A stretch of 64,000 nucleotides of DNA from the NCBI GenBank assembly GCA_905178155.1, contig CAJINV010000002.1, positions 8,877,412-8,941,411 of the forward strand, written 5' to 3'. This DNA is from Amoebophrya sp. A120. Taxonomy: Eukaryota > Protista > Dinoflagellata. The notes under the pieces were generated by a model. The model was not told where the DNA came from. It made no database searches and was given only the letters and a program-made list of their open reading frames with translations. Position numbers and translations under genes: made by a program. Below are positions 6,090-51,708 of the stretch, piece by piece; position 1 is the first letter of the stretch, and the number at the start of each line of letters is the position of its first letter.

Positions 6090-7662
6090 ATCGATTGCAG
6101 CTTCGTAGCTGGTATCTTTGTGCCTACTAAGTAGAAATTCTATCGCAGAGGGGGAGTAAGTAAGTACTTACAGAATATCATCCGCTGTACGTGTGACTCC
6201 GATTGCAACCAATCGGCAAGTCTCAGAGCACTAACCCGAGGCAGTGGGTGACGAGAACAAAATTCTTACTTCAACTAGCACAAGCAATGAGCTGAATTCA
6301 ATCTGAAGAGAAAAAGATGCCTCAGTACATGGACACCCTTCCTCCTCGGCCAGCTGACCGCAATGCCTCCTCCAATTGAGACATTTTAACGTCAACATCA
6401 CCATGGTCCATGTAGTGGAGCAGGCGTTGCCAATTTATTCACTCTCTCGTCCCTCCTCACGGTCTATTTCGACAGATATCATGGCTTTCAGACGCCCCTA
6501 CGCAATTTGCGTTTTCGAGAGGCTAGCGAAACTGAGTCAGCGTCATAGTAGCTTGGAAGCAAGCTCCCGGCGGCTCCAGCCAGTGCGATCAGGAACAAAA
6601 TAACACGCAGGCAAATTTCTTGCTCTACAAGGAGCGGAATCGCAGCACGCTTGACGATCGGGGCTCGCTACAAACCGGGGCACGAGCGGGGTCCCCCGCC
6701 CCTTCTGCGCGAGGGCGAGAGCCAACTTCTATGCGCATGCGCGCGGACGCCAATTACTGCGCCCGCGTGCGCGCATGTGCGCGCGCGCAGGAAACTAGGC
6801 TCCGCGCAAGCAATTAATCGGCGCGGGCGCACACGCGCAAAGCTTCGCGCGCAAGCCACACCAAGTCGCGCGCAAGACTGCGGGCCATCCACAAATCGGG
6901 CCAAGGCGCGCGCGCACGCGCGCGAGCGTCTTGGACTATTTCCGCCCGCCGTTCCGGCCCTTTCCAGCAATTCGAATTCCGAGACCACCTGCGCCGTGCC
7001 CCTCGCGCTTCGGCCTCGTTGTCGGGCAGGTCCGGAAGAAACTCCTGGAAAGAAGCGGCGTTGTCGGTGAACTCGTAGGCGACCCCCTTTCTAGACCTGC
7101 GCGTGACGATGTGACCGGCGGACCCGACCGGACCCTGGATGGTCTCCGCTGCCTCCTCTTCTACCGCCGGGGCCTTGTTGGCGTGCAGGATCATCAAATC
7201 AACATGCTCGGAGGTGTAGCCGGACCCGTCTTTCCTGTGTAGAAAAGGGGCACAAGGATTAGCGTGGAATCCGAATAGCGCGCGCGCGATTGTGCCGACT
7301 CATCCACGACGTGTTGCATAGGTCGCGTCGTTGTATTTTTTGCCACACCTAGAAAACGCTTCTTAATCCACGACGATGCAGATTGATGCCAATAAAGCAA
7401 GAACAGCTAAAACAAAACATTAATAGCCTGAACCTGATTGCAGAAACCAAAAGCATAACCATCAGCGCTCAGGCAAATTATGACTATCGGGAACGAGATT
7501 GCATTCAATGGTCATCATCATCATCATTTATCCTGCACTAGGGGGGGACGTGCGGAGGGGTTGGGGTTCGAGTTCGTTTCAAGCTGCATCTCGGGGCTTT
7601 GTCACTGCAGCTTCGCACATCGTGGCTCGTCGTGTACTAAGACTACCAATTTATCGAACTCC

Positions 7663-16583: not shown

Positions 16584-19500
16584 TCATACTCCTCCTCCCT
16601 TCATCCGGGAGGGTGAATCTCGAATGTGCTGCGCGAACTGCGCTGCCACGTTACCATAGGCGCCTCCCTCCCGCTCCATTTGCCCAAAAGCGTCTTTGTC
16701 CTTCCCGCCCCTTCCTCCTGCTTTCCAGTCGGGCATGATCCCCCCCTGGTCCTCGTATCCGCCCCACCCTTCGTGGACCTCCTTCGCCTGGTCGTGAAAG
16801 TCCTGCTCGTCTTGCTCCCACTGGTCACGCTTCCCCTTCTTCTGAATCACCGCAACGCACAGCACGATGGACAGCAGCCCCAGCACCCCCAGCGGTAAGG
16901 CAATGCACACCCACATCGGACACCCGGCGAGGTTGCCCGAGGCCGGCGGCGCAACCGGCCCCGTGCCCGGGGCCGCGTCCGCCACCGCCTGGCCGCCCGG
17001 AACGCTCAACCCCCGGGCCTCGTCCATCAGCCGCCGGTACTCCGTGCTCATCGCTGGCACCGAGGCGATAGTGCTCCGAAATTTCGCCAACCGTGCGCAC
17101 AGTTGCGGGACACTGAGCAGTTTTGAGTGGACAATGATGGTTTATGATTTCAACAGTACTTCGTTCCTTTCTCGCTTAACCTTTTTTAGCAAGATAAACA
17201 TTCCATGAGTACTACCGTCCGAAACACAGCATTTATGAAATCCTAAAACAAACCTATTGGGACAGAAAGTCAAACAATTAGCACCTAGAGCCCGCAGGAT
17301 GTTGCTATTAATTTCCTTTATTCAAAAAAAGACTTTATCAATAAATACACGCTGAATTTCGCCACTGTCGTTTTCAGCAAGTCGGAATTCGACAAGCACT
17401 GCTCGCCCTCGAGTCTGCAGCACGGGATCAGGTCCTGCGTCGGCGACACTGCGGCGGGGATGGTCCGGCGCACCGATCCGTGCGCGTAGTCAAAATTTTG
17501 CACCACGTATCCAAGAAAAAAACACCATCACAATCACATTTGGGAGGTTTTGCATCAGAAATTTGTCTCGCATGACAAATTTTTCTTGTATTGCAAAAAC
17601 ACAAAGGGAAATCGCCCATAGCTCTTGACTGTGATGCATTTTTGCGCATGACAAAAAATTTTGTATTGCAAAATTGTGCAAAAGTGATTGTGATGGTGTT
17701 TTTTTCTTGAATACCACGTCGCGAACGGGCAAACAGTCGTGGGCCCCCTCGTGGGCCTCCAGCTCGCAGATCTGCGACACGATGCCGTCCACGCGGGCGA
17801 ATTCCCCGTCCACAACTTGCGTGTTTTGTGTCGTGGTGGGCACCGCGTGCGTGGCTTCGTCCGATTTCCGGCGCGCCTGTCGCTTTCCCGTCTTCAACAC
17901 TTCGACGGCGGATGAGGAAGAAGCAGAAGGCTCGTCAATCGCAGTCGTGCTGTTTTTTGCCGCACTAGCCGCGCTTTCCAGATTTGTTGACGCGTCTGCT
18001 TTCGAAGAAGTGGCCGCTGCGTTCTTTTCCTTCTTCTTTTTCTTTCTCTCGCCTGTGTCCAAGTGGGTCGCTTTCACAACCTTCTGGACGAAGCTGCTCA
18101 GTGTTTCCTTGCCCTCGCCAAAAAATCGGTCGTACAGATGAGCTCCGGCGTGCTCGAAAAACCGCGTGGCCACCCCTTTCTTGCCGTCCCGCGGTGCCAT
18201 AAACATGGTCTTCTTCTGGTACTCGTGCCGCTCTTTCACCGTGTCAGGATGTTCCTCCGAGTCCGATTCCTCCTCCACCAAGTCACCTTTTGCGTCCAGA
18301 TGCAGGTGCTGCTGCTTCCTCGCGTGGTGGCCGTGTGCCTGTCTGGACTGGTCTAACTCCAAGTAGGACACTTCTGCGGCCGGTGTTTTGGCACTGGCGG
18401 GTCCTGCTGGTTCCGGCTTCGCATTCCCATCCGTGGCTGCCGGCGTGGAACTGAACGTTTCGGTGGTGGGAGCGGGGGTCGACGCAGATGAAGATGATCC
18501 GTCCTGCAATAAGGACTTGTCGTTTCCAGAACCAGCACCACTTGCTCGCGTAGTGGAACTCGCACTTCCGCTTTCTTCTGCCGTCGAGTCTTGCAGAAAG
18601 GAGGGGGAAGGCGACGTGGAAACGGATGGAGTCGTAGTACCGCTTTCCGTAAGCATTTCGGGCTTTTCCTGCAACGAAGGGGACTCCGTGACGGTAGGGG
18701 TGACAGTGCTGACGGGAACACCCGATGCAGCAGCGCCCTCTGAGTTCGAAAATCCTGCTGGGGGGCTTGCAGTAGTGGTCGCAACCGCCTCTGGGTCTTC
18801 TTGCAGGAAGGAAGGCGAGGTAGCCGGCGGGGAGGTTGTAATAGCAGTAGAAGGTGTTGCCGTAGTGCTGACTGGCGCGTCTTGCAGGACCGAAGGTGCG
18901 GTTGTTGTACCTGCCGGCGTTGTGACCGAACTTTCTGTTGTGGTTCCAGGTGCCTCTTGGAGGAAGGAAGGCGGCGTCGTGGTCCCTTTTGTCGAAGATG
19001 TAGTTGCATTGGTTGCATTGGAGTTTTCTGAAGACATCGTCGGAGACGGCACGATCACGGGAGGAGTCGCGGTGCTCTTGCTTCCCTCCACGGATGAACT
19101 TTCCGACGGTGCAGCCGCTTCCAGAAAAGATGGCGCGGTGGTGCTCGCCGAACTTGACGAGGGGCTGGGTGCCGGTGCTTCGGCTTGCAGCTTTTCGTTG
19201 TTTTCAGGAATGGTCTTGCCTCGCTCCTGTTCGGTGAACGCTGCAGACGGTTCACTTCCTTCCTCCTGCGCAGCCTGCGGCCGTCCGGCGTTTTGATCGA
19301 TGCTACCTCCGCTTTCCGGTGGCGTGGCCGATGAGGATGGACCACTTTGCGGTTGTGTTTCTACTGCTGGCGCTGCCGTGCTGGAACCTGTTTCGGCACT
19401 CCAGCCATTTTCCTTCTTGCCCTCGTCCCCTGGTCCGGCAGGGGTGTTGCTCTCAGGCTTACCGGCATCTTTCCCTTGGTTGAACGACGTGGCGCTGGTC

Positions 19501-31901: not shown

Positions 31902-33661
31902 TCATGTTTCTTTGGTATCTTTTTCGACTGTAAACTGACTGCTGCCATACCCGGCAGTTGTATCTACTTTCGTTTTCTGTTTCAAATCTGGCGCTGTCGC
32001 CTCAACATCCTTTCTCGTTGTACTATTCCTCCGACCTTCTGTCTGCTCTATTTCTGGCTCGATTTGAAAGTCCAGGTAAAAGATGCACTGTGATGAACCT
32101 TTTGTATTTTCAAAAGTCACGATCACGTTTACCTCCCGCTCTGCTTGCGGGTCTCTGGCCGCTCCTGGTTCCCTCGACCCGTCCTCAAAATTCTCCCTGT
32201 TCTTCTCCAGCATCATATCAGAATGAAAAATCCCCCCTCCCCATATCAAAACGAAACTTCTGATGCTGGATTTGAGTACACAAATCAGCTTTGTATTGCA
32301 GGAAAGCATTGCAGTCAGGTCCCCAGGCTAGGTAGGGGCGTATGCGCCTAGTTGTTCAGCATGGCAAGCGGCCCCCCTTTAGGCCCAACAGCATGACAAA
32401 TCGACTCCGCAATGGGGTGGAAGCTTCTGCCCTTGCCTTCTTGCAAAACAAATGTGATCTGTGACCTCAAATCAGCAACACAAATTTTCGGAAACATGCC
32501 TTTTCAATATGGGGAGGGGGGATTTTTCCTCTCAATACATCAGCTCCAGTAATTTCAAATCCGCCTTGCTGTCGCGCAGCGCAAATTCCGCACGCAAAAA
32601 CGTGATCACGCCCTTGAGTATGTCGGCATAGAATACCAACGCGTTCTGCAAATGCTGTTCGTGCGGATTCGCGACAGTTTTTGCCTGCCCTCCCGCCACA
32701 GGCGTGGTGTTTGTTGCAGCAGGTGCCGCCGCGGACGCGGCTACCGTCAAGTGGCATACCAGGTGCCTCACGGGCCGAAAGTCGTTGTCCCACAGCACAT
32801 ATCAAATGTAAAAATGTCTGGGTCTGGAAGAGTCATGCTGTTTCTGCATGACACAGAAGGTCTGTCATGGAAGCTCTGGCATCACAGGTTTCGAGAAGCT
32901 TCCGCAATGCCGAACCCGCATGACAAATCCCCCATTTTGGTGACAGAAAGTGAGCAGCTTTTGCTACCTATGCATGAGAGATTTTTGTGTGTTCTGAAAT
33001 GCGCATCACAAGTTGCATTCTTCCAGACCCAGACATTTTTACACTTCATAGCACAAAGCCTCCCGTATCGCGGTTCACCTGCAGCCGGTCCGAATGTATC
33101 AAATGTAAAAATGTCTGGGTCTGGAAGAATGCAACTTGTAATGCTGTCTGCGGATTCTAAAAATATCTGTGTTGCATGAGCAGCGAGAGGAGTCAGTTCT
33201 TGGCACGCCGAGAGGGCATTTGTCATGCGTAATTAGCATCAAGAAGCTCGCAAAAAATCTGTGATGCTAGCACCAGCATCACAGACCTCACGGGTCATGC
33301 AAAATGTGCATGGCAAGTCCCGACTCTTCCAGACCCAGACACTTTTACAATCCATAGCCTGCTTCCCGAAGCAAAAGCTCCACACCTCGCGGCACAGAAA
33401 TTTCACGGCATCCCGGTGCTCGCTGATCACCTTCTTTCGCAGCAGGTGCTTCCCGATCTTTTGCCCCAGTCGGAACGCCATAAACGTAGCCCCGGATGAG
33501 GTTGGTGGGCGAGTAGAATCCTCCTCTGGGAGGTCTACTGTTGGATGTGCTTTCGGTAACGTACCGATTCTGTGGTCCTTCTCGCTTTTTTTCCGGTTCT
33601 GCAACTGCAGAAACGCATTCTGGAAATGCAGCAAGACCGGGTAAGCAATCTCGCTGGTCAT
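31902..33661 (-). CDS. TRAPPC6: TRAPP complex subunit Trs33/TRAPPC6, 4 exons separated by three TIR elements (33661-33357, 33091-33051, 32794-32538, 32210-31902)
   Basis: The spliced product reads AFRLGQKIG...AVKFLCREVWSFCFGKQADRLQVNRDTGGFVLWDNDFRPV...FYADILKGVI. This matches the Trs33 pattern KF[IL]C[KR]..W...F.KQ.D.L..N..G.[FY]VL.D..F. Confidence 0.85.
32216..32537. mobile_element. TIR introner-like element, family B (322 bp)
   Basis: Ends TATCAGAATGAAAAATCCCCCCTCCCCATAT / ATATGGGGAGGGGGGATTTTTCCTCTCAATA. TSD CATCA at 32211-32215 and 32538-32542. Removal gives LELM-LEKN in frame. Confidence 0.9.
32800..33050. mobile_element. TIR introner-like element, family C (251 bp)
   Basis: Ends TATCAAATGTAAAAATGTCTGGGTCTGGAAGA / TCTTCCAGACCCAGACATTTTTACACTTCATA. 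TSD GCACA at 32795-32799 and 33051-33055. Confidence 0.92.
33097..33356. mobile_element. TIR introner-like element, family C (260 bp), inverted relative to 32800-33050
   Basis: Same TIR core TGTCTGGGTCTGGAAGA. Degenerate TSD GAATG (33092-33096) / GCCTG (33357-33361). The interior aligns by eye to the reverse complement of the neighbouring copy. Confidence 0.88.
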
Positions 33662-34799: not shown

Positions 34800-37700
34800 C
34801 TATGGTGCCGCATCGACTCCCGCGGCGTACAGTCTGAATGCTCTTTCGATGTCTTGTCTTCCTTGGCCGCTGAGACCTGCTCGCTGTAACATACCTGCGT
34901 GGGCGATAACAACCTGAAGTTTCGTACCGGTCCACCTTCCTTCGTGGTTTCGAGCTGTCGTATGTCGCTCCCGGTACGCTTGCACAAGGTTTTTCACTTG
35001 CCCAATCCTACCCTCGTACTCCTGCATACCTCGGCCCTCCGATTCCGGACGAACCTCCTCCCGCAACTCCTGCCACTTTCCCTCCCCGACCGGGAGAAAG
35101 TGGTTTTGGAGTAGACGCAAGTTTCCGCCGGTGGCTTTCAAATGTCTGGCCGGTTTGGGCATGGGACGCAAAACAGTCCGGGAAGTTGTCTTTCTGCCGT
35201 CCTGTGACCAGTTCATACCCCTGTCGAGCACCGCCCAGAGGACGTCCCGCCCGAGGATTCGGTGCGCCTGCAAGCACCACTGTTCCCCGAGCTGCTGCGC
35301 AAGCGGAAACACGGGGTGTGTGTGCTCCTGCCACACCTTGCAAAAGGCTTTTGCTTCTTCACTTGGCGGTCTAGGCTGGGGGCGCTGTGGTCGTGCTCCA
35401 ATTTGTGTCGCTCCTGCTCCAATTTCTCCCGCTCCTGCTCCTCCTGGCGCAGAAGCAGGACCTGGGGCAGCGGCTGCCGGAGCTGCAGCAGCAACAGGCT
35501 GTGCGCCTGGTGAAATCGGCAGTGCTGTTGTGGCGGAAGACGAGGAACCTGGTGGCAGCGACGAGGACCCAGCGGAGGCTTCACCTGGTGGTGCCCCGGG
35601 GGCATTCACCGTGATCTGAAGGCTCAGCTGGTAAGGATGAACGCCCGGAGATTTCCTGCTGCATCGCCTCATTGGCGCCGGCCCTGCGAAGACCGTACTC
35701 CCTCCCACAGTTCCTGCGCTCTGCTGTGGCCCCGCACTCACACGAGATTCTTCTCCAGACATCGCTTCATCTCCAGCGTTCGTATCTGGCAGTTGCGAGG
35801 ATGCTGCATCAGTAGCAACGGCGTCACAACCTCCATCCGGCTGGGCAGGCGGTGCAGACGCGGGGTCGACATTGACTGCATCTCTGCTCGTTAGTGCTGC
35901 CAACGAAATAGCCTCGTCTCGTTCTAGCACACGACTTTCGATAGGGACACCAGAGGGAACCGTCAGGACACCACCACCCGATGGACCGCCATCGGCTTTC
36001 ACAGTTGCACTGCTCTCTCCTCCTCCAGCTCCAGAACTACTCCCGGCCACTTCCGCCTCTCCTTCAGCGGCAATCGAGCCTGCCTCGTGCTCTTGTTCGA
36101 CCTGATCAGCTTGTTCACGTCGAAGTCGTCCGAGCGTAATCGGAGTTTCATTTTCTCGCGAAGAATCAGTGGCGACATGAACTTCTTGATCTTGTGGGCC
36201 TAGCGCAGTGGGCGCAGCATCCCCTACAGTTCTTACCGCTGCTTCATCCCCAGTGATCGCAGGAACTGAAGCCTCTTCTGGTGCTCCCGGATCAGCCATT
36301 TCGACATTCTCGCCTGCAGCAGGGTGCTGGTCTTCTTCTGCCGATGCGGCCGCAGAAACTGGCGGCTCGGAGCTGGTGCTGGACGCACGTTGTTCGTTGC
36401 CATTTTCATCTTCGTGCGTCACTGAAACGCCTGCGGGAGCAGCCGCCGGAGACTCGCTTATTAACGAAGTAACATCGTGAGGCTCTGCTAAGACCGGCTC
36501 CTCCACGGCTTCCGAGGCCGGTGGTACTGCGTCTACTCCAGCGGTTCCGTCAATAGCAGCACCATCAGTCCCGTGCACACTCGGAGGGGAAACATCCGCA
36601 GGAGTCATCGAGAGTCCACTCCCACTGGCGTCACCACGAGGAGCTTCCTCGGGCAGATCAATCAATCCATCTTCCAGGCGAGCCGAGGGAGATTCAGTAG
36701 CGTCCTGCTGCTCCGGATCCTGTCCACCGGTGGGATCATGATCTTGGCCAGACCTGCCCTGCAGCGTCAGATGAGGCGCATCTCCTTCCTCGGTCAAGAG
36801 ACCCTCGCTACGAGGCGTAGTTGGAATACTCGCGACGACCCCGATCTCGTCCCCGGCGCCATTCGGATGAACTACAACTGCAGCCGGCTCAATTCGAAAC
36901 ACTTCTCCTTCGGGGTTTTCTTGTCCTGCACTGCCCGAATCTCTACCGACTTCTTCCTCGCCGCCCGTGGGCGGAACTGCAGGTTCGTCAGTCGGATTGC
37001 TCTGCCCAGACCCAGCAGCAAGAGCAGGCACACCTGCCGCCGCGTCAGTGCTGCTCGCAGAAAGTGAGGCCTCCACCTCTGGCGCTCCTGCGCTGTGTGC
37101 GAGAATGCCTGTTGTCCCACCGGACTGATCATCTTGTTCTGGTCCGGACGCAACATTTGCAGGGCTGGGCTTGCCGCCGTCCAGCGCTGTGATCTCTTCT
37201 GTCGGTGCAAGCTCAGGCTGCGTGGCCGCTTCCCCCCAAAGCTCTTGACGCTCTTCGTGCGTCGCGTCTCGCGGCATGGGAATGGAGCCTTCCAAGTTTG
37301 TCGGTAGCACGCTACCGAGCCAGCCCAGGATTGTGCTTGCATCTGTGGTGCCGCCAGTAGGAGAGTGCTGTCCACCGTCGCCCGCATCAACCTCGATCTC
37401 CCCAACGTCCGCTGCCCGAGTTTGAACCGGCGCGAGGGGAGACGATGGCGCGGCAGAATTGGTTGGGGCGCCGGCGTGCGGTTCCGGCGTATCAGCAGCG
37501 CCTGCGGCTGTCGCTGCGGTTGCCGCGTGCGTCGCTAAGAAAGTACGACTCTCGGGAAGCGGTGGGCTTTCGACAGCTCCTGTATCCCCCTGGTGGTACA
37601 ACGCTGCAGCGCTAAGGGCTGGGAATGTCAGAGCGGCTGTCTTGCCCGTCGCAAATGCGAGTGGACCAGCTGCAGCTGATGTATGTCCTGTATTCGCCGG

Positions 37701-40628
37701 GGCCTCAGTGTGGTCCGTATGAACAGCTGCTGCTTCGTTCTGCTCCTGAACACCCGAGTGGTCTCCAACTTGCTCAGAGACGGGAGACGGAGATTCCGGG
37801 GGGGGAGGGCAATGAGCATTTCCATCTTGCGCATCACCGGGTGAGGGAACAGTCGCACTCGCAGCGGTGTTCAGGGCATATCCCCCGCTTACGCCGGATG
37901 GCAGAAGCTGCTGCTGCTCGCCAACCGGGTGGCTCTCCTGTGCCGGAAACTGTGGGAGCCCAAGCGGCGGCGTCCCAGGGGCTGCTACCGACAGCGAAGG
38001 CGGTGTGCTCGGAAGGGCCGGCCCTGGAATGATCTGCTCTGCCTGTAGTGCTACTGACGGGCTCTGAGGTATTATCGGCTGTTGCAGCTGTTGCGCCGCT
38101 TCCCCAACGCCAGCAGTGCCTACGACTGCAGTGGGAGCTTCTTGTCGCTGTTCCGCCCCCGGCTGCTGGATTTGCTGCTCAGCCTGCTGCGCATTCTGCT
38201 GCTGTGACCCTTGTTGTGCCGGCTGCTCTGCCTGCTGTTGCTGTGCCTGCTGCTGCTGGCCGAGCTGCTCCTGCCCCGGCTGTTGTGCCTGTTGCAACGC
38301 CTGCTGCGCGGCTGTTCCAACACCTGCCGCGGTTACTGCGTCAGTGGCTGCACCGGCGGTTGTGTCCGCGGTTGCGCCGGGGGCTGACTCGGCGGTTGCG
38401 TCACCGGCTGCTGCGCTGTTTGCGGCACTCGTCGCGGCGGTGTTTGCGTCGACAACGGTTCCCAGGGGGGGAGGTTGCTGTTCCTGATCGCCCGAGTTTC
38501 CAACTTGCCCAGAGACTGGAGAAGGAGATTCCTGGAGGGGAGGGCGATGAACATTTTCATCTTGCACAACAGCGGGCGGCGTCCCAGGCGCTCCTCCCAA
38601 GGGCGAGTCCGGTGTACTCAGGCCGGCCACCGCTCGACTCTGTTCCGCTTGTTCTGGCGGCTGTTGCAGCTGTTCCGCCGTTTCTTCAGTGCGAACAGAA
38701 CCATCTGCGAGTGGTGCAGCGGAAGCTTCATTCTCTCCCTGCGCCTGCATATCTTGTCGCTGCTGGTGCTGCGGCTCTTCCACACTCGGCTGCTGTTGTG
38801 CCGGCTGCTGCTCTTGCTGCTGCTGTAGTGCCTGCTGTGCCGGCTGTTCGTCCGGCTGTTGTTGCTGTGACTGCTGCTGCTGGGCCGGCTGTTCATCTTG
38901 TGCACTGACGTCCGCCTGCTGCTGCGCAGGCTGTTGTTGCCCGTTCTGCGGCTGCCCGTGCTGCTGTTGCTGCGGTTGTTGTGCAGGCTGTTGCGGCTGT
39001 TGTAGCGACTGCTGCGGTTGTTGTAGCGGCTGTTGCGCATTCTCCCCGTCATGCTGCTGCGCTGGCTCCTGTTGCAGTGGCTGTTGCGTTTGTTGCAGTG
39101 CCTCTTGCGGTTGTTGCAGTGGCTGTTGCGGCTGTAGTTGCGGCTGTAGTTGCGGCTGTACTTGTGGCTGTAATTGCGGCTGTTGCGTCGGCAGTTGTTG
39201 CGGCGTCGATGGTTGCGGCATCGGCGGTTGTGGCGTCGGTGGTTGCGGCATCGCCGGTTGTGCCGGCGGTGGTTGTGCCGTCGGCGTTGGTGACGTCGAC
39301 GGTTGTGGCGTCGACGGTTGAGGCGTCGACGGTTGAGGCGTCGGTGGTTGTGCCGTCGACGGTTGAGGCGTCGGTGGTTGTGCCGTCGGTGGTTGTGCCG
39401 TCGGTGGTTGTGCCGTCGGTGGTTGTGCCGTCGGTGGTTGTGCCGTCGGTGGTTGTGCCGTCGGCGGTTGTGCCGTCGGCGGTTGTGCCGTCGGCGGTTG
39501 TGGCGTCGGCGTTTGTGGCGTCGACGGCTCCTGCTGCAGCTTTCCAACCAGGCTTGCTGCGGCTGCTTCCGGCAATCCCTGCGAAACCAGTGCTTTTTTC
39601 ACCGCTTCCCACCGCGCGCGATCTCGCGTGCTCGTGTTCTGGGAAGGGTGCCCGCCACTGCTCCCATCGTTCAGCATGGCGACCAAGTCCTTTCCCTCCT
39701 CTTCCCACGACTTGCAGCAGTTCCGCACCAGAAAAGTGTATCGGTTCTTCGGATCCCCCTGTTCGGACGTGGAGAGGTCGTCCCCCTCCTTCGGGAGCAG
39801 CCGAAACGCAGCCCAATCGAAAATCTTCGTCTCACACGTTTTGGGGCCGAAGTGCGAATGCTTGCAGACCCGGCCGAGCGCGGTCTCAACGTCGTGGGCG
39901 GGAAGATTCGCCAGCGGCAAGTGTTTGCACTTCACGGGAACCCGCTGTTGCTGCGCTGGGTCCACTGGATCGTCTGCAAGAGCAGACAAACCGTCCATCA
40001 TCTGCTGCTGGAGCTCGACAACAGAAGGCTCCTGCGTGGCCAGAAACCCGCTGCTGCCCTTATTCTGTCCCGGGTTGAACACCCCCTTCGCTCCGGCAGC
40101 AACTGTTGTTACGTTTTCATCATGCAAACGAATACATAGTCATAAATGTATCGCTCCAACAACGTCCTCGCCGTCGGCGAGGTGTTCATCAAACGACCTC
40201 CAAGGCAAAAACGAATACAAGTGCGACATCATCAACATCCTGAAAAAGTCAGGCTACACAATGCAATCGAGACACCATAAAAAACGCTTATAAGTACACA
40301 GAAAATATGTTGTACTAATCCACGTGAGGAAGCCCGCTCCGCAAACTGCAGCGACCATGATGAAAAACACCGGCGACAGCAGCACTGCCGCGACGCCTCC
40401 GCCCCCCGCGGCACCTGCACGCGCGCCGCTCGCCTGAAACGAGGGCTTTCTCGATACGAGGAGGGGTTGATCCTGCTCCGGGTTATTGTGCTGAAAGCCC
40501 TGGTTTTCTTCTTCGTCATACGAGTACGACCGGAGGTGCAAACGGGGCCGCCCAGAGTCGGCATTGGACGTTGGATGGTTCATCCCACCCACAGACGCCG
40601 GTGGATGTTGGTCATCTACACCTGCCAT
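34800..40628 (-). CDS. Very large Q/P/A/E-rich mucin-like protein; probable upstream exon with a TM segment (40628-~40315) and main ORF 40127-34800
   Basis: 1775-aa ORF with a Cys-containing N-terminal block, (QPPTA)n repeats and polyQ-rich tracts. The upstream ORF has the hydrophobic stretch VAAVLLSPVFFIMVAAVCGAGFLTWI. The exon junction is not firmly established. Confidence 0.65.
39195..39525. repeat. Coding 15-bp tandem repeat (GGTTGTGCCGTCGGT-like; encodes QPPTA/QPSTP)
   Basis: About 20 consecutive units are visible directly. Confidence 0.9.
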
Positions 40629-41776: not shown

Positions 41777-44700
41777 TTATGTGGGCAACTTCACTCCTCG
41801 GTCGCAGACCAGGCACAAAGTCACCTGGTTGGACCCGTCCGGCGGGATGAACTCCCCGGGCAGGATGCCCAAGTTCAGTGTGACGTTGACCAATTTCCGC
41901 GCGTTGCACTTCGGACAGGTCGTGCCCGTGGGTTCACAACTTTTCACCGCCCGCGGCAGCCAGACGACCTCCTTGCATTTGGGGAACTGGTCACACGACA
42001 GCCGCCAGTTGGTGTTATCCTTCACTTTCAGCACCATTTGCCCGTTCCGACACTTCCCGCACTTCGCCACCGCCTGCTGCGGCCGGCCGCCGGCCAGCTG
42101 GCAGGTCGCGTGCCGGCACTGGAAACAGCGCATGTTGGCGGGGGTCGGAAGGTTGTCGTTCGGAAAATCCGGCGGATTGTTGAAGCAGTAGGGGCAAAGC
42201 GTGTGCTGCGTGTTGGTCACATTGTTCTTGATCAAGACCGTGCCCGTGTTGCAGATGGGGCACGTGAAGTTCCGGTCGGTGATGGTCTTCTCGCTGGCCG
42301 GGGTTCTGGAGGGCAGCAGGAGCAGCGTGTTGCCGCCCGCGGTGCAGTTTTGCTGCAAATTGCACCGAAACATGTAGTTCTGCACCACCAGCTGTGGCGT
42401 GTTGCTGTTGGAGGCTGAATTTCCCTGTTTTCCCTTGCCTTTTTTCTTCATCGCGGTCTTCTTCTTTCCCTTGCCGCCCTTCGCATTACTAGTGCCAGCA
42501 TTTGCTCCCGCAGCACCACCCCTCGAGGACCCCTCCGCCCCCTCCGCAATCGTGATGGCTGCATTCGAGCCGCCCTTGTTCCCGCGCGGCACGGTCATCT
42601 CTTCCTGCGCGAGGAGGTCCAGCCGGCCTTGGCCGCAGCGGCACGGCACAATCCCGGCCTGGATCAGGCGGACATTGGTGTTAGGATTGTTCGAAGTAGA
42701 TGCATTCGGAGCGGCAGGCTGCCCATGTGGTCCTCCTCCACCTCCACCTCCCGGGCCGCCGAAATTCGTACCCGGACCCCCGCCCCCTCCGGGGAAAGAC
42801 CCACCTCCCGGGCCTCCAGGAGGGGGGAAGTGGGCAGCTCCAGGCCCACCACCCGCTCCCGGAAAACCTCCGCCCGGACCCGGTCCACCTGGCGCACCTC
42901 CAGGTCCCCCCGCACCACCTGGACCTCCAGGACCCGGCCCGCCGCCCGCACCCGGAGGTCCACCAGCGGCGCCCGGCGGTCCGCCTGCTCCCATGTGGAA
43001 GTTGCCCATCACGTCTGCGAAGTACGTGCCCAATTTCCCGTCCAGCGTCCCCGGATTCTGGCTGATGTTCACGAACAGCTGCTGCATGTGCTGCAAGCAG
43101 TTCTGCAAAAACACGTTCTTTTGCTGCTGGTTCAGCGCGATCCGCGTCATCTCCGCCTCCATCGCCGCCCGCAAATCCGGCTTCGAGATGTCGTACCCCA
43201 GCAGAGCCGCGAACTCCTGATACCCCTCGACCAGGGCCAACCCGAGGGTGGTGGGCGCGAACCGGTTTTGGTTGTTCTTCACCGAGTAACTGCGGTCCTG
43301 AATGGTCTGGATGTGCGTGGCCATGGTGGCGTCCGTGCCAATGCCAAACCGATCCATCAACGCGATCAGCTCCGCTTCGGTGAGCAGTTCCGGCGGCTGC
43401 GTCGTCCCGCTGGTCATTTGCAGCTCATCCACCACGCACGGCGTCTGATTCGCGTGGTGAAACACGGGCTCCAACACTCGATTCACCACGCAAAGAGCCG
43501 CGGGTAACAACGTATCCGTTCGCCCCCAACGGTCGTAGGGGTAGACTTCCAAAAACCCCTTGTCCGTCACGCGCAACCCGTTCGCGGTGAACTCCTCCTC
43601 GTTTTCCGGGGGGTTGGTACTCGCTGTCACGGAGGTCTTCTCGCCCGTCGCGTCGGGGGAAAGGCAGGCTAAAAAGTGCCGGGTGATGAACTCGTAAATC
43701 TTCCACTTCCACCCATTGATCCCGTTTTCGTTCTCCTGCAAAGTCTTCACCGGGTGGATCGGCGGGTGGGCCTGGTCGTCCTTCGGCCCGTTGCGCGGGT
43801 TGGTGAACCGATTCAAATTATGCACCTGTCCGTTCACGAACAGCCGGTTCGCCACGTAGTGGCCCCAACTGTTGTGGTTTGCGTGGACAATCGCGAGCTG
43901 TTTCAAATCGATACTAGGGTGGAACTTCTCCGTCTCCGTCCTCGGATAGGAGATATAGCCCGCTTGGTACAGCTCCTCGGCCAGTTTCATAGTTTGCGCG
44001 GAGGGGATTCCGAAATACGTACTACATTTTTTCGTCAGTTCAATGGTGGCCAGCGGGATCGGGCGCCAATGCGTCACGTTGCGGATTTGCACGTCCGTGA
44101 CAATCAGTCTGCGGCTGTTCGCGGACTCCAGTACGTCCTCAAAAAAGTTCAAAACCGCAACCCGATCGAACAAGCGGTTGCGGTGCCAGGTAAACTCAGT
44201 CAAGGACGGGTCTCGGTTTATTGGCTGATTGTTGTTGTTTGCGTTATTTGTCCCTCTATTTCCCCCGCCGCCGCGCCGGGTATTTCCTGTTCCTCCAAAG
44301 TTGTTTTCCGAACTTTTGTTCGCCTCGAAGTTCGTGATTTCGTCCTGCGACAGATTGTGCGTCTTCACGACCAGTTTGATTCCCCAGAACGGCTCGGGCA
44401 GGAAATTTCGGATCAGTTGGTACCGTTCCTATCCCACGAAAAAACTGTTTCACTGTGATGATTTTGCAATATCTGCATCACAAGTTTCTTACACATGACG
44501 CGGAAAACTTGCCATGCGCGCTTCCCAAGGGAAAACACGCTTCAAGATCCGATGTCTTGCAGGTGTAGCAAGACAAACACCTTGCTGCTTCGTTCTGTGC
44601 ATCACAAGTTCACAGTGAAACAGTTTTTTCTTGCGATAGTTCCACGACGAACCCCAATGTCGGAAACTGACAGGGGCCGTACGACTATCCTGAGTAAAAA

Positions 44701-46429
44701 CGTACCCACACCATAGTTGTCATGCAGATTTGCCATGACAGGAACATGTGTGATGCGCAACCCCATGAAAGGCATTTTCAATCGTGTTTGGGAACTTGTA
44801 ATGCTGTAAACAGGATCAGCAGATCGATTTGTGATGCGGCTTTCCTTGCTAAATTGCACTACCTTACAGGCTGAAACTTGTCATGCGTGACTCCCAAAAC
44901 TCCTAGGTTTGTGTTGCAAAATCCCCATCTTGACTCTGGTGTGGGTACGTTTTTAATCGGGCTAACGACAGTAACTGGTTCGCCAAGTCCGGGAACCTTC
45001 GCTGGTACCGGAGACACATAAAGCGCGTGAAAGCTGCGCCGATTCTGAGATCGATCTCCGTCCGCGCCTCTACGGCGTCCGCGAGGGCTTTGTTCGGGAT
45101 TTGCAAATTTTGCACGGCGTTGGTCAAGTCTTGGAAGGTTAAAGCGGAAAAGACCGCCCGCTTTATGACCAGGTTGGGGTTTTTGTTTAGCGCAACCTCC
45201 AGCACTTCGTACCCGATCGCTTCCCCCTCCCGGTCACAATCCAGCCACAGAACGATCCAGTCGGACTCCCGGGCTAACTCCTCGATCATCCTCTTCAGGG
45301 GCAGCATGTCCCGGGGCACGAACCGGTTCACCGGTTGGTTCAGAAGCAATTCCACCGGAGGCGGCCCGTTCTGCCAGGATTTGCACGCCTCCGGGAAGTC
45401 GATCTGCATCAAATGTCCACGAACGGCGGAAACCTTCATCTTTACCTGCGTCCCCTGTATTTGATAATTGAACTCGTCCACGTTCACGCCGTTGAAGCCC
45501 TGGCCCCCGATTCGGCGCCGATTCACGTTTGCATTCCGCGCTAGGTGCTCGGTGATGCCCCGCTGCACGGAGGGTTTTTCCGCGATGTTCATGATTCGGC
45601 AATTCGGAAAGGGGGGCAGATTGGCGTTGTTGTTCTGCCCATTCTGGTTGAAGAACGCATTGTTCTGGTTGTTTGCTCTGCGCCGCGGCGGCATCTTCGC
45701 GATTTGCGCAGCGACTTTGTCGCTGGGGGAGGGACAGGGGGAAAATGAGGTGCAAGTTGATACACTGGTGTTGGTCTCCGAAGGCGAAGTTGTCTGACAA
45801 TCCTCCACGTTGTCAGGAGGCAAAGGATTAGTTGATGCAGGGCCTAAATGGGCTGCTTCAGAGGAAAACAGAGCTCGGAGATGCAGTTCTGTCTCCTCTG
45901 AGCCGATTCTGGAGCCGCAGGACGGAGTTGTCGTATCGTGTTCGTGTGGCGCCTTTCGTGGGGTAGAAAGATCTTCCGCCGCCGCGTCCTCAAGTATTTT
46001 CGATGTGACGGTCCCATTTCCGCCTGCTGGTGTGCCACTGCTAAAATGTCGCTTCAACCGTCGCGGGTCATCATGATTTTCGCCTCTAGAAAGGCGTCGC
46101 TGTTGCTGCTTCACCAAATCAAGTCGCGAGCTTTGTGCGCGGCAGCTACCGAGCGTCAGATGTTCCGCATCCGCCCAGACATTTCGAAATATGCCATTGG
46201 GGCGATGCGCATCTACATATTCAGTAGAAATATCAAACGCAAGTGTGCGAAAAGTGCTGAGATGATGGCGTAAAGTTGTAAAATGCCTCGGCAGGCGCGA
46301 TTGAAATTTGTCCTGTGGACGAAAAAAAGTCAACAAGGTAGTGGAAGAGTAGTGCGTTGGTGGAACAACGGAAACGTAAGGCTTGCTGGCCGTGGATAAA
46401 CTTCTAGTCAGACGTCCTCCTGCACTCAT
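41777..46429 (-). CDS. TOP3A: DNA topoisomerase III alpha, 3 exons (46429-44965, 44680-44639, 44424-41777)
   Basis: TOPRIM motifs IAEKPS and WLDCDREGE; IDLRIGAAFTR; spliced SYGPCQFPTLGFVVERY; catalytic GYISYPRTET; AHPPIHP; GIGTDAT; C-terminal C4 zinc ribbons (CPYCFNNPP, CDQFPKC). Confidence 0.95.
44430..44638. mobile_element. TIR introner-like element, family D (209 bp)
   Basis: Ends TATCCCACGAAAAAACTGTTTCACTGTGA / TCACAGTGAAACAGTTTTTTCTTGCGATA. TSD GTTCC at 44425-44429 and 44639-44643. Confidence 0.92.
44686..44964. mobile_element. TIR introner-like element, family E (279 bp)
   Basis: Ends TATCCTGAGTAAAAACGTACCCACACCA / TGGTGTGGGTACGTTTTTAATCGGGCTA. TSD ACGAC at 44681-44685 and 44965-44969. 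Colinear with 47350-47628. Confidence 0.92.
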
Positions 46430-47091
46430 CTAAGATCAAATTCGGAAATGGTTATCGTTGATGTACGTATAGTCCTGGTGTGCGGCTACTGTCTTTTCTG
46501 ACAAGACCTCTGCACACACGGGACAACGATTCAATGCCAAATCTTTGAGTCTGATGTGACTTCAGCAAGCATTTCGTGGTTGTCCCTTCGCAGAGAGATG
46601 CGCCACGGTAAAAAATCGAGGACAGCCTCCTGGCCACGATTCAATTAAAATTCGCAAAAAGTAGCAATCGGAATGGCGATTTTTCGTTTGCAGACCACGA
46701 TTGGAGAGCTACTACACATGAGTGACGCAGGCGCAGTTGAGAATTTCACGACGCATCAAACAATCCGACGAGACTATGATTTACAGATTTAATTTTCATC
46801 GCTGCAGCAAGACGCAGGTACACGCACGATAAGACAAAGACGCGGAGCTATAGGTTTTTCACCGGTTGATGCCTTCACGACACGGAAAAAACGACTACCA
46901 GACGATAATACACCTTTTCATCCGAACACGGTGGCAAGTATCACAAATGGCCTGTTGCATGGTTGTTGTCGCGAGCGTCGCGATCTAATGCGCTGTACGT
47001 GAAGTTTGCAATGACTTGATCCTGCAAGCATTATTCTAGCGTCAGTTTGGTCGTCCTTAAACGAACTTTTTACGGTGGCGAAAGCTACCTT

Positions 47092-50000
47092 TTACGCTTT
47101 GTTTTTCTTCCTTCTCTTGGCTTCCAGTTTTCCCATTCTGGCTTCCTTATCGGCGTTATTCCCCGTCGGTATGCGCTTTTTCACCGAGATCTTTTGTCCG
47201 AACTGCAACAAAGCGTTTTCCCCCTCTGCCAGCGTCTGTGCCTCCTCCTCGTCGATGGTGGTAACCTGCCCGCCAATGTTGGCGTCAATGTCGACTTTCT
47301 TCACTTCAGCGCTGCTGCCGGAAGCGTTTTTCCTCTTCTCCTCCATCTGTATTAAGAGGAAAAACGTACCCACACCAGAGTTGTAATGCTGATTTGCAAA
47401 GACAGGAAGACTTGTAATGCGCATCTCCATGAGCGGAATTTCTAGTCGTGATTTGGCATTTGTAATGCTGTAACCAGGATAAGCAGATGGATTTGTGATG
47501 CGTTAGCCCTTGCTAACCTGCACTACAGTACGGGCTTGAACTTGTGATGCATGAGTCCCAAAACTCCTAGGTTTGTGTTGCAAAATCCCCATCCTGACTC
47601 TGGTGTGGGTACGTTTTTACTCAGGATAATCTGTCGTTTGACCTCATCAGACAGCATCGGCTCGAGCGCCTCCGACCACACACGGATTAGGATATGAACT
47701 GCAAAAATGTCTGGGTCTGGGAGATTGCGAGATTTGTCATGCTTGTCTGGCATGACTCTGAACTCTGTGTTGCATGGCCGCGAAGAGCTCCTCCTCGGTG
47801 TCATGCAAAAACGCAGTTTCTCATGCGGAGTACGCAACTCAGAACCATGGAAAAAACTTGTCATGCTTGGCAGCGCATTATAGTGAGTTCACTACTCCCT
47901 TTCCTGCATCACAAGTTTCCAGACCCAGACATTTTTACATTTGATATAGGAGCTTCGTAAACAACGCGTGGGTTTGCGACACAGGAAGCTGTAACTCCTT
48001 CGACACCTGCTCGAACGTCTTCTGCTGGCAGCCGACGGCGAGAAGGATGGCGGCGTGCACCGCGGAGAGTTGTAAGTTGCAGGGCGCACCTTTATTTGTC
48101 GCTGGTGCGCCACTGTTGACAGCGGCATTGCTGCTACTCGGTGCGACAAATTTCCCGTCGAAATACAGACTCGCCAGCACCGGGAGCAAATCCTGAATCA
48201 GCGCCACCTCGGCCCGCTTGTTCGCGAAGAGCTCGATGCGGTGCAGGTCGTGTCTCGTGACTTGCTGCAAAACGCAGTTCAGCAATTGCTCAGAGTGGGA
48301 AACACGATTTTCATCTGCATCCGTCAGAATTCCAGGTGCTACCGAGCTCGAGCTCGGCTGCCCGGCGACGGAAAGTGCGAGATTCAGTGGCAGTTTTTGG
48401 AACTGTTGCGTTTTCAGCAGTCGCAGGAACCTACACCGGAAATCTTTGTGGAACTCGGCCAGCCAAGTCGCGGTCGTCGCTGAATGTCGCTTGTTGGAAC
48501 TTGTAGAAGCTTTACCACCACTTCCCGTGGCCACCATGGACGATGAGCCCATTCTTCTCAACAGAATTCCGCTGTGTTCACCAGTCACGTCGTTCGCCGT
48601 CTGCCGGATGTAGATCGGGTCAAACTTCAGCTTGTTGTGCCAAAATTCGAACAGCGGCAGAGTAACGCCAAAGCTGGTTCCGAGCCAGTCGAGCTCGAAT
48701 ACGGGTTTCGTGTCTTGGACGGACGAAAGCAAGGCCGGAATCTCCTCTTTTACGGTCAAAGCTTGGGAGTCGGCGGCCGTGGAACTTTTACTATTTCCCT
48801 TTCCTGTTTTTGACTCCTTTTCCTCCTCATCTCCGTACCCTCCCGCCGGCACCATTTCCAGATTGCACCACTTGATGAACTGGGAAACCGCCTCTTGACC
48901 GTAGCCCTGCCGCATCATCTGCGGGTGCGTCGCGATGCGGACAATCCTGGCGCCCTTCAGAGAACCGAAATTAGCGTCGGAAAACTGCTGCGAGATCGTC
49001 CAGGAGATCATGTCCCCGCTTGGACGAAGGCCGCGGGCGAGCGAGTTCGCCACCGCCTCCTTGTTCAGCGCCCCCTCGGTCGCGACGTGCATCGCGACCA
49101 GGATCTCTGGAATCGTATCGGACTCACCGGAGTCGTTCTGTATTGTAGACAAGCACTTTCGTAGAATTTGAAAGTATTCGAGGCATAGAATGAGCAAATA
49201 TGCTACTCTAGCTAGAAACGCCGCGGTGGTACAACCTCTAATGGATGCATAAAAACCAAGTCACCAATAGTAAACACAGCGAAGTTATTTTCTATACCGT
49301 TGAATCCTCCCCGTCGGACTGGTCCGAATCTTCCCGACTCGGCGCCAGCAAGACGAATAGGTAATGCCCCGGCGCGTCGGACAACAAGATCAGATCGTTT
49401 GGACTGTTCTTGTAGTGGCTCGCGACAAACAAACCCGTTAACTTCTTTAAGAACTTCTCCGAGGCCCCGTGGTAGCTGAACAACGCCGTTCGGTCGACTA
49501 GGAACAGCTCGCACTGGTCCGGCATGGGGCACCCTACCTTCTTCATTTTTTCCAGTGCTTTTTTGCTGGAAACCGATTCCGACGCGTCCAGGAGGCACAA
49601 CTCGTTCAGCCACGCCTCCACCGCGTCGTTCAGGCAGTATCGAATCGGCTCTTTCAATTCGATCTCCGCAGAGAGTTTCTTCTGGTGTTTCAGATCCTGT
49701 AACAGTTTCAAGGACAAAGACCGACCGGTCCCCTCGTACCCGTTCACGGTGGAGGACATTAACGTCAGGTATGGCCCGAGCATCTGCTTGATGATGGGGA
49801 GCGGAATGGCCGCCGCCTCGTCGATGATCAGCATCTCGGCCTGGGAGAGCGCGGTCCCGTGCTGCGAAACGATCTCCGGCGGGATGTACTGGATCGTTTG
49901 GCGGTGGTTTTTGAACACGTTGACCCGGACGATGTTGCCGCGTTTGCTGTCCCCGTGTTTCAAATTCAGATTCTGGTTGGTGTTTGATTTCTCCAGATCC

Positions 50001-51708
50001 GCGCGGTTTTTCAGGGACGATTGGTCTAAGTTTTGGTTTGCACTGTTAGTAGTGTTGTTCAATGCGACCAGCACGTCGTAGTCCTTGTGTTCCGTGTATC
50101 CGAGTGCGTCGAAACCCTTCAGGAGAAACTCGAAGACCGTTGTCAAATTCTCTGGACTCGGCGCGGACACGAAAATGTTGCTGTAGCCGTAGGCAAGAGC
50201 CGCAGCCAGCGCCAACCCTAAGGAAGCAGACTTACCTCGCCCACGACCGGCAGTGAGGGAAACGGTCTGGGACAGGGTTTTCTCGGAAATGACGTCGACA
50301 AACTGCATGAGAGCTTGCGCCTGGTCCAGGGTTTTGGCGAGGTTCAGGAGGGAACCGAGCGGCTCGGCGTCTTTCAGGTCCTCTTTCAATGCGAGGAGCT
50401 CCTGCTCACGTTTGGACTGCAACTGTTGCACCTCCAGCGAGCCAGATTGCTTCGTGGGGGCTGCTGCGAGACCTGGGTGTGGTTTTGATCATTTTGTTGC
50501 ATGTTGACGTGGATGAAGTTCGTTTTTTTCAAGGTAGAAAGTGATGAAATACCAACAGAAAGTTACGATGCAAAAGCGAATGCAAAAAATGCAAATGCAT
50601 GAAAAAACGCATTAATTTCCAGTATTATACCTTCCACGCCCTCGATTGCGTTGTTCTCCATTCCCATGAACGCGCGGTTTTTGCAGATCGGCAGCAAATT
50701 CATCTCGTCGTCCAGTACCAAGCAAGTGTCGCACCGGACTAAAGACAGCAAGAATCGCTCGTTCCAACGGGGTTCAAAGTCCGTCTGCTTCTGCTCCTTG
50801 AGCTCAGAGGAGAACTTTTTGTGAATATCCATAGAACAGTTGTAGAGCTGTCGGAGCGAAGACATGTTGTTCAGCAACAGAATGACCGCGCCGCCGCCGG
50901 AGACGGTTTCGACGGTGCGACAGAGGATATTCGGCGTCAATGCCTCGAAGTCCTGCAGAATCAGCATCTGGTGCGTCTTACCCAGAACCTGTGAGAAGAT
51001 GGTTGTATCGTGGTAGGAGTTTTGTGGTTTTTGCTTCGGAAAATGCAAAAGAGCATACAGATGAGATGGCAAAAAAGTTGGTCGATGTCTGAAAAGACGA
51101 TACAAACTACCAAGAGGCCCTATGAAATTTCGAAGAGCTTTGGGACATCCGCTTTTCAGTTTTTTTCTGCGATTTGCATGTCGTGGTACTCGATCAGATG
51201 GAACGCAAATTGGTGCTACGAACCAGATCTGAGTACGCAAATCGGGGTTGTCTTGTCCAACCACGCATGACAACCTCAATGTTACTCTTTGCAATTATGT
51301 ATCAGATCCAGATGAAGATGAAACCTCGGTCAACAAGTACAACTTAGGTACCTGTTCACTGTCCTTGTAGTAGCAGTAACGGATATCGTGTGCGGAGGTG
51401 AACAGCTCAAACGGATCCTCGATATTCGCGTCATAATCCCCCCTCGCGACTTTTTTCTTCAGCTCCTTTGCCCTCGTTTTTCTGTTACTTGAGAACCCAA
51501 GTTCCTTCTTGTAGCACCACAAAATTTGCTGTTGCTTCTTCGTGGATAGTTTGTTCAGCATGAACTGCAAATTTACGATCTGGTCGCGGCCCCGGTCGCC
51601 GAGGATCACGAAAAAAGACCTCTCATTGTTCTTTACACAGTGCTCCAGCAGCTGTCGGACCCGAGCGTCCACCTTCTTCTTACTGCTGGAAGAGCTGGAC
51701 GTCGTCAT
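47092..51708 (-). CDS. NAT10: RNA cytidine acetyltransferase NAT10/Kre33, 6 exons (51708-51352, 50988-50631, 50472-49298, 49137-47947, 47687-47629, 47344-47092)
   Basis: KKVDARV, LWCYKKELGFSS, LQDFEALTPNILCRTVETV, TAGRGRGKSASLG, IDEAAAIPLP, STVNGYEGTGRSLSLKL, SHYKNSPNDL, RIVRIATHP...GYG, TGEHS. Three GT-AG introns and two TIR-element introns. Confidence 0.96.
47350..47628. mobile_element. TIR introner-like element, family E (279 bp)
   Basis: Ends TATTAAGAGGAAAAACGTACCCACACCAGAG / CTCTGGTGTGGGTACGTTTTTACTCAGGATA. TSD ATCTG at 47345-47349 and 47629-47633. Confidence 0.92.
47693..47946. mobile_element. TIR introner-like element, family C (254 bp)
   Basis: Ends TATGAACTGCAAAAATGTCTGGGTCTGG / CCAGACCCAGACATTTTTACATTTGATA. 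TSD TAGGA at 47688-47692 and 47947-47951. Confidence 0.92.

Follow-up and report, generated by a model that had tools for sequence, protein, structure and literature searches.

Introner families of Amoebophrya sp. A120 share a conserved, regularly spaced internal motif

About 30,000 introners, grouped in 1,954 families, were described in the genome of Amoebophrya sp. A120, and neither a transposase nor a U1 small nuclear RNA (snRNA) was found, according to the accessible portions of the genome paper (Farhat et al. 2021, PMC7789003). How these introners move and how they are removed is addressed here from a stretch of 64,000 nt of this genome (GCA_905178155.1, contig CAJINV010000002.1, positions 8,877,412-8,941,411 of the forward strand; hereafter the window) and from a larger sample of metagenome contigs. 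The window holds eight elements bounded by terminal inverted repeats (TIRs), which resemble the introners of Farhat et al. in their organism, their TAT-N7-AAA inverted repeats, their short direct repeats and their size, and probably also as non-canonical introns in unidirectional gene blocks (PMC7789003). The direct repeats of 3-5 nt reported at introner boundaries take the form of an exact 5-bp target-site duplication (TSD) in seven of the eight window elements. The published families were, however, defined by their terminal repeats, and the accessible text, supplementary figures aside, mentions no internal motif common to them (PMC7789003). We describe here an enriched, conserved and regularly spaced internal site, indifferent to transcript orientation, that is carried by these non-coding TIR insertions.

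Introner family 38 of A120 was described as Ginger-like, with a 5-bp TSD, TA/TA termini and TIRs (Gozashti et al. 2025, PMC12130899), all of which it shares with the elements analysed here. It differs from them in its length of about 810 bp and in its integrase-like open reading frames (ORFs), which resemble a Copia-type putative transposase, whereas the present elements are non-coding and 109-322 bp long. Family 38 is the best candidate for their source. The IS3EU and GingerRoot elements also have TA..TA termini, TIRs and no strong target sequence preference (PMC10045372, PMC6839031), but their TSD is usually 6 bp long; among 441 TIR pairs examined here, the TSD was exactly 5 bp in 332 and 6 bp in none, and membership of this group is thus not claimed. 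A DDE transposase of that lineage was not found in the loci examined. Ginger1 and Ginger2 differ by their TG..CA termini (PMC6839031).

The window elements were found by an inverted-repeat search in which the motif was not used. They measure 206-322 bp, belong to five TIR families and have TA at both termini (8/8); 15 of their 16 ends start with TAT and one with TAG, and all 16 carry an A run, which is absent from the ends of some metagenome families (F06-F08, F10). TA..TA termini were likewise present in 284 of the 303 TIR pairs with a 5-bp TSD. By these ends and duplications, the window elements, including both 279-bp copies of family F01 described next, are introner elements of the published kind.

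These two copies are E6 (44686-44964), which lies as a predicted intron in the gene of DNA topoisomerase 3-alpha (TOP3A) and has the 5-bp TSD at both flanks, and E7 (47350-47628), a predicted intron in NAT10. In E7, the motif TTGTVWTGC starts at 47381, 47412, 47460, 47493, 47542 and 47573, always on the + strand, with spacings of 31, 48, 33, 49 and 31 bp, exactly as the initial annotation had listed. The equivalent offsets in E6 (44717, 44748, where the first base is G, 44796, 44829, 44878 and 44909; all +) hold TTGTVWTGC at five of the six sites and TGTVWTGC at all six. Overall, the two copies are 83% identical, and their differences fall at 0 of 36 core bases and at 36 of 171 other interior bases, in line with the earlier remark that the sequence between motifs had diverged.

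The claim that the motif recurs across element families was also borne out, since all eight TIR elements carry TTGTVWTGC. There are five sites in E1 (F09, 206 bp; 17508-17713), three in E2 (F03, 322 bp; 32216-32537), four in E3 (F00, 251 bp; 32800-33050) and five in E4 (260 bp with an F00-type TIR; 33097-33356), which stands in the orientation opposite to E3 and whose TSD matches at 3/5 positions. In E5 (F02, 209 bp; 44430-44638), a predicted TOP3A intron, the sites are mostly on the - strand and include a perfect facing pair with a gap of 7 bp; E8 (F00, 254 bp; 47693-47946) is a predicted intron in NAT10. The enrichment proposed earlier was tested directly: TTGTVWTGC occurs 28 times in the 2,060 bp of elements and six times in the remaining 61,940 bp. 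The chance expectation for the whole window is 4.27 sites, and the 34 observed were reached in none of 100 shuffles. Words of the motif also ranked at the top in unguided k-mer counting. The three GT-AG introns of NAT10 (681 bp in total, a small control) contained one site, and non-coding, non-element tiles contained one in 12,750 bp.

A larger sample was assembled with a probe made of the terminal signature and two spaced motif sites, which matches three of the window families. It gave no match in viral contigs, two loci in prokaryote genomes and at least 157 matching stretches in metagenome contigs (loci L014-L164), which were merged into 132 segments of 620,968 bp. All metagenome element counts are among the matches listed, and all loci but one come from a single accession prefix, the sole match from a different assembly being L157 (contig Ga0068627_1003063). 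A looser three-motif probe returned 13 loci in viral contigs, mostly tandem or coding repeats, none of which had TIRs with a TSD. A protein from L056 differs from its A120 counterpart at two residues, up to where its frame enters an element, and the contigs are therefore ascribed to the same species or nearly so rather than to an independent lineage. Calling of TIRs with TSDs gave 408 elements, seven of them from the window, and 401 after seven calls longer than 500 bp were dropped. Two element pairs were duplicates from overlapping contigs; they were kept in the enrichment, conservation, orientation and branch counts and removed for the TSD and TGC mismatch, covariation and frame tests.

Among the matches listed, TGTVWTGC was present in 257 of the 260 metagenome elements that do not themselves match the probe. 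These 260 elements hold 874 sites, where shuffled sequence gave 10.1, and their density of 13.6/kb compares with 0.52/kb in unmasked DNA. In families without any probe-matching member, 87 of 88 elements carry the motif, and all 14 consensuses of families with at least four copies hold two to seven sites. The extended consensus is 13 bp long (RRAWYTGTVWTGC), and the number of sites per element varies from 0 to 7.

Conservation of the sites was measured by cross-validation: half of the copies served to define the sites, and the non-probe copies of the remaining half to score them. The core mismatched in 2-14% and other interior bases in 18-34%, and in nine of nine families, also at non-CpG sites, the core was 2-10 times less variable than its flanks. 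Core mismatch was usually lower than TIR mismatch, and 46 of 47 sites fell below the median background window. The substitutions that do occur are filtered. At motif position 4, C was replaced 230 times, by G in 133 cases, A in 78 and T in 19, whereas C to T accounts for 45% of the changes in the background; at position 5, T was the replacement for A in 75 of 116 cases, against 23% in the background (these counts include related copies). Such a spectrum is as expected from a degenerate binding consensus and not from neutral ancestry. Both the enrichment and the flank comparisons thus uphold the earlier claim of an array that is under selection and common to families.

The same data bear on a reading without function, in which a unit of about 32 bp was duplicated within a single ancestral element, the families derive from that element and the motif is left over from it. 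The TAT ends and 5-bp TSDs that the families share would fit it, and duplication could produce a repeat of 31-33 bp. When families were compared with the motif masked, four of 91 pairs beat all 100 shuffles, namely F03/F07, whose interiors are homologous (z=10.2), and three weaker pairs. The other 87 pairs did not, however, and ancestry cannot account for the lower divergence of the core within families or for the filtered spectrum. Core conservation and the substitution spectrum therefore largely refute the remnant reading, which we consider very improbable. The description of the families as unrelated, made in the initial annotation, holds in so far as most are unalignable inside, and fails for the common TAT..ATA ends, the 5-bp TSDs and the F03/F07 homology; the families probably form one old lineage.

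The site could also be the target of a base modification or of a chromatin protein, and would then be a cold spot for mutation or a mark by which elements stay accessible. The V-A-T-G of the motif fits the VATB context preferred by N6-methyladenine (6mA) methyltransferases (PMC12695648), T is avoided before ApT (T at position 4 in 13 of the 1,246 sites with A at position 5), and the motif is mildly enriched outside elements. About a fifth of the sites, however, have T at position 5, many are without ApT, and VATB is a much looser context than a 13-bp consensus whose spacing is fixed; the accessible text gives no evidence of this mark in dinoflagellates. We regard this explanation as improbable.

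The arrangement of the sites follows common rules. Same-strand pairs 31-33 bp apart number 21 and occur in 13 of the 14 consensuses (null mean 2.06, maximum 8 in 5,000 permutations); 12 such pairs are found in eight of nine essentially unbaited families. This spacing, and not the paired period of about 80 bp proposed earlier, is the general rule: the longer period is clear in F01 and rough (83-85 bp) in F00 and F03. Similarly, the facing pairs of the earlier description exist in some families with a gap of 7-8 bp (seven pairs in the consensuses) and are lacking in the F01 consensus; the gaps that recur between facing sites are 7-8 and 36-41 bp. The first inward site stands 33-34, 41-45 or 53-56 bp from the end at 19 of 28 ends, and these first sites are phased (R=0.85 at 10.5 bp; one per family, n=11, P=0.0004). 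Repeated, conserved sites are thus found at set positions inside the ends, as in an end-binding array.

We therefore favour, with a probability of about 0.57, the reading that this conserved and regularly spaced 13-bp site forms an array to which a single mobilising protein, common to the families, binds; this protein is predicted to be a transposase of the integrase type or a partner of one. Of the selected array for a common trans-acting factor suggested by the initial annotation, selection and sharing are borne out, and the binding protein itself is a prediction. One protein would occupy the array in several copies, on sites whose spacing of 31-33 bp amounts to about three turns of the helix and which keep a fixed helical phase relative to the end; on the TAT termini that the families have in common, the bound copies would build the complex for cleavage and strand transfer. 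Elements keeping enough sites would be re-copied more often, and we propose that the sites have endured for this reason, whereas spacers and the inner parts of the TIRs have drifted apart, which yields many families. Excision from the RNA would be a distinct process, dependent on the ends and the duplicated target. Arrays of binding sites at element ends are known from Tn7-like elements (PMC8649781) and from the Emigrant MITE (a miniature inverted-repeat transposable element) and its partner Lemi1 (PMC1636448), in which several short sites lie inside the ends and are bound there by the transposase; by analogy, they may serve as a working model. The introner sites differ in that they fill the whole short element, in both orientations and at 31-33 bp spacing, and are common to families that differ in the interior of their TIRs. 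We claim no relationship in sequence.

The orientation of the elements relative to transcription was also determined. With a coding model for which the window served as training set, 305 of the 401 elements received a strand, with agreement within segments in 246 of 250 cases; 165 are inserted in sense and 140 in antisense (P=0.17). In F01, 233 sites lie on one strand and four on the other, yet the family inserts 17:20. These results bear on the possibility that the motif is read on RNA, either by a splicing factor, an option offered in the initial annotation, or as small hairpins of facing half-sites. Facing pairs with loops of 7-8 nt do exist, there is a slight excess of sites on the RNA strand (607 versus 528), and one of eight covariation tests gave excess pairing (F02, 64/79; 0.91 versus 0.49). 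The other seven were at or near independence, however, and the RNA of E6 and E7 carries only the complement of the motif, while the reading frame still skips both elements. Because insertion occurs in both orientations and facing halves mostly lack covariation, recognition would take place on DNA rather than on RNA. A strand-specific RNA signal or hairpin is unlikely, the splicing-factor option is not supported, given the near-random orientation and the behaviour of F01, and we consider reading on RNA very improbable.

Reading frames and annotated proteins suggest that the elements are spliced out. When E5 and E6 are each removed with one TSD, TOP3A forms a frame of 1,141 amino acids, against 934-987 otherwise, and this frame aligns with the Amoebophrya A25 orthologue without gaps across both junctions. 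For NAT10, the annotated A120 protein P0121 fits removal of 259 nt at E8 and 284 nt at E7, that is, the element plus 5 nt. Splicing of the element plus 2 nt, with one codon added, was considered and rejected, since P0121 fits element plus 5 at both introners. More generally, the frame stays open in 108 of 119 elements when the element is taken out with one TSD, whereas the two alternative frames do so in 74 and 77. In non-probe copies, TIR bases 1-3 and 11-13 deviate from the consensus in fewer than 3% of cases, whereas bases 4-10 differ between the two ends of one element, with a few recurring variants in the window and in L014-L164; the conserved TIR bases could mark the part of the end that is read in splicing or cleavage.

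This exact removal would also suit a host DNA-binding factor that recognises the array on chromosomal DNA and tags the element, so that it is cut out precisely and co-transcriptionally. Such a mark would explain how introns without fixed splice dinucleotides are recognised in either orientation, in a genome in which U1 snRNA went undetected (PMC7789003); independence of orientation suits any DNA-level reader. The mismatch rates bear on this reading in both directions. TSD copies mismatch at 4.5% per site and terminal TAT at 0.9-2.4%; TGC mismatch ranges from 0.8% to 26% across 29 listed sites, with strong sites below the TSD rate, but is about 4.4% when pooled (our own sum), the same as for TSDs. 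When TSD mismatch was used as an age clock, copies with perfect and with mismatched TSDs did not differ in any site class, in a test without power. The wide range in site number per element also speaks against a host mark, as do the phasing to the ends and the arrays of sites inside them, which have a precedent in transposition and none in splicing. The host mark is a doubtful reading and the main rival to an array for a mobilising protein. That introners are mobilised, and inserted copies marked for exact excision, by one and the same sequence-specific DNA-binding factor, whichever way they are oriented and with no need of U1 or fixed splice dinucleotides, is quite unlikely; if true, it would amount to a DNA-encoded intron-definition code, by which the element and one target duplication are cut out.

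Several observations weigh against an array for a mobilising protein. Core constraint reaches terminal branches (core/interior change 0.32-0.59, against 0.09-0.49 on internal branches), although terminal branches include unsampled active lineages, which limits the comparison, and TGC mismatch at many sites (0.8-3%) is lower than TSD mismatch; host-level constraint is therefore possible. The helical period peak is broad (R 0.77-0.85 over 9.5 to 11.5 bp) and may be driven by TIR length, nine of 28 ends do not begin with an inward site, the families are not independent, and site orientation is asymmetric about the ends in F01, F04, F11 and F13. Non-element DNA of the metagenome contigs holds two to three times more sites than shuffles (73 versus 21.7 in non-coding tiles). 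Of 238 sites outside recognised elements, 189 lie more than 100 bp from masked DNA, and such sites may be decayed elements or host sites.

As for the protein itself, no transposase domain was present in the 64 ORFs scanned of 72 long ORFs in the loci, nor is a putative transposase reported for A120 in the accessible text of Farhat et al. (PMC7789003). A supposedly autonomous element of 6,197 bp proved to be an artefact of the finder, a chance join of two 149-bp elements. A 1,104-bp element (L026:505-1608), among the seven calls above 500 bp that were dropped, looks real, with an F07-like TIR, a 5-bp TSD and a GC-rich repetitive interior; its five ORFs gave no Pfam hit, and its five perfect sites are all within the first 220 bp, the opposite end having none. 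For one long ORF from L077, no homologue reached the threshold of E<=1e-10.

The long reading frames of the window are on the minus strand. TOP3A (41777-45695, -; start codon approximate, read from sequence) has its best match in the A25 orthologue. NAT10 (47092-51708, -) contains, besides its two introners, GT-AG introns of 363, 158 and 160 bp, and one of its exons is 100% identical to P0121, in keeping with A120 as the host. A fritillarid tunicate, considered for the AG-AT-like boundaries, was set aside as the source. The 363-bp intron (50989-51351), more than twice as long as the other two, carries one motif site at 51265 and is possibly a decayed element. Elsewhere, a near-perfect 30-bp palindrome occurs four times at 9-243, as two inverted pairs 129 bp apart, without TAT ends or the introner motif. 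An open frame of 1,657 amino acids (1194-6167, -) includes a HicA-like domain, uncommon in eukaryotes, at residues 46-97 (Pfam E 3.9e-9), and another of 1,779 amino acids (34800-40139, -) contains Q/P-rich repeats and, at 39089-39568, a long tandem array with a 15-bp unit, and gave no Pfam hit.

The elements are already known, and their internal array appears to be new, although an earlier mention is possible: no internal array common to introner families was found in the accessible literature searched, which included the reviews PMC11453091 and PMC11282704 and did not extend to supplementary figures. With one conserved, spaced site common to its families, the diversity of introners in A120 would reduce to one system with one probable trans-acting factor. 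The array provides a bait for catching this factor and a simple signature for finding such introns, and it offers a direct way to tell selection for mobility from selection for splicing.

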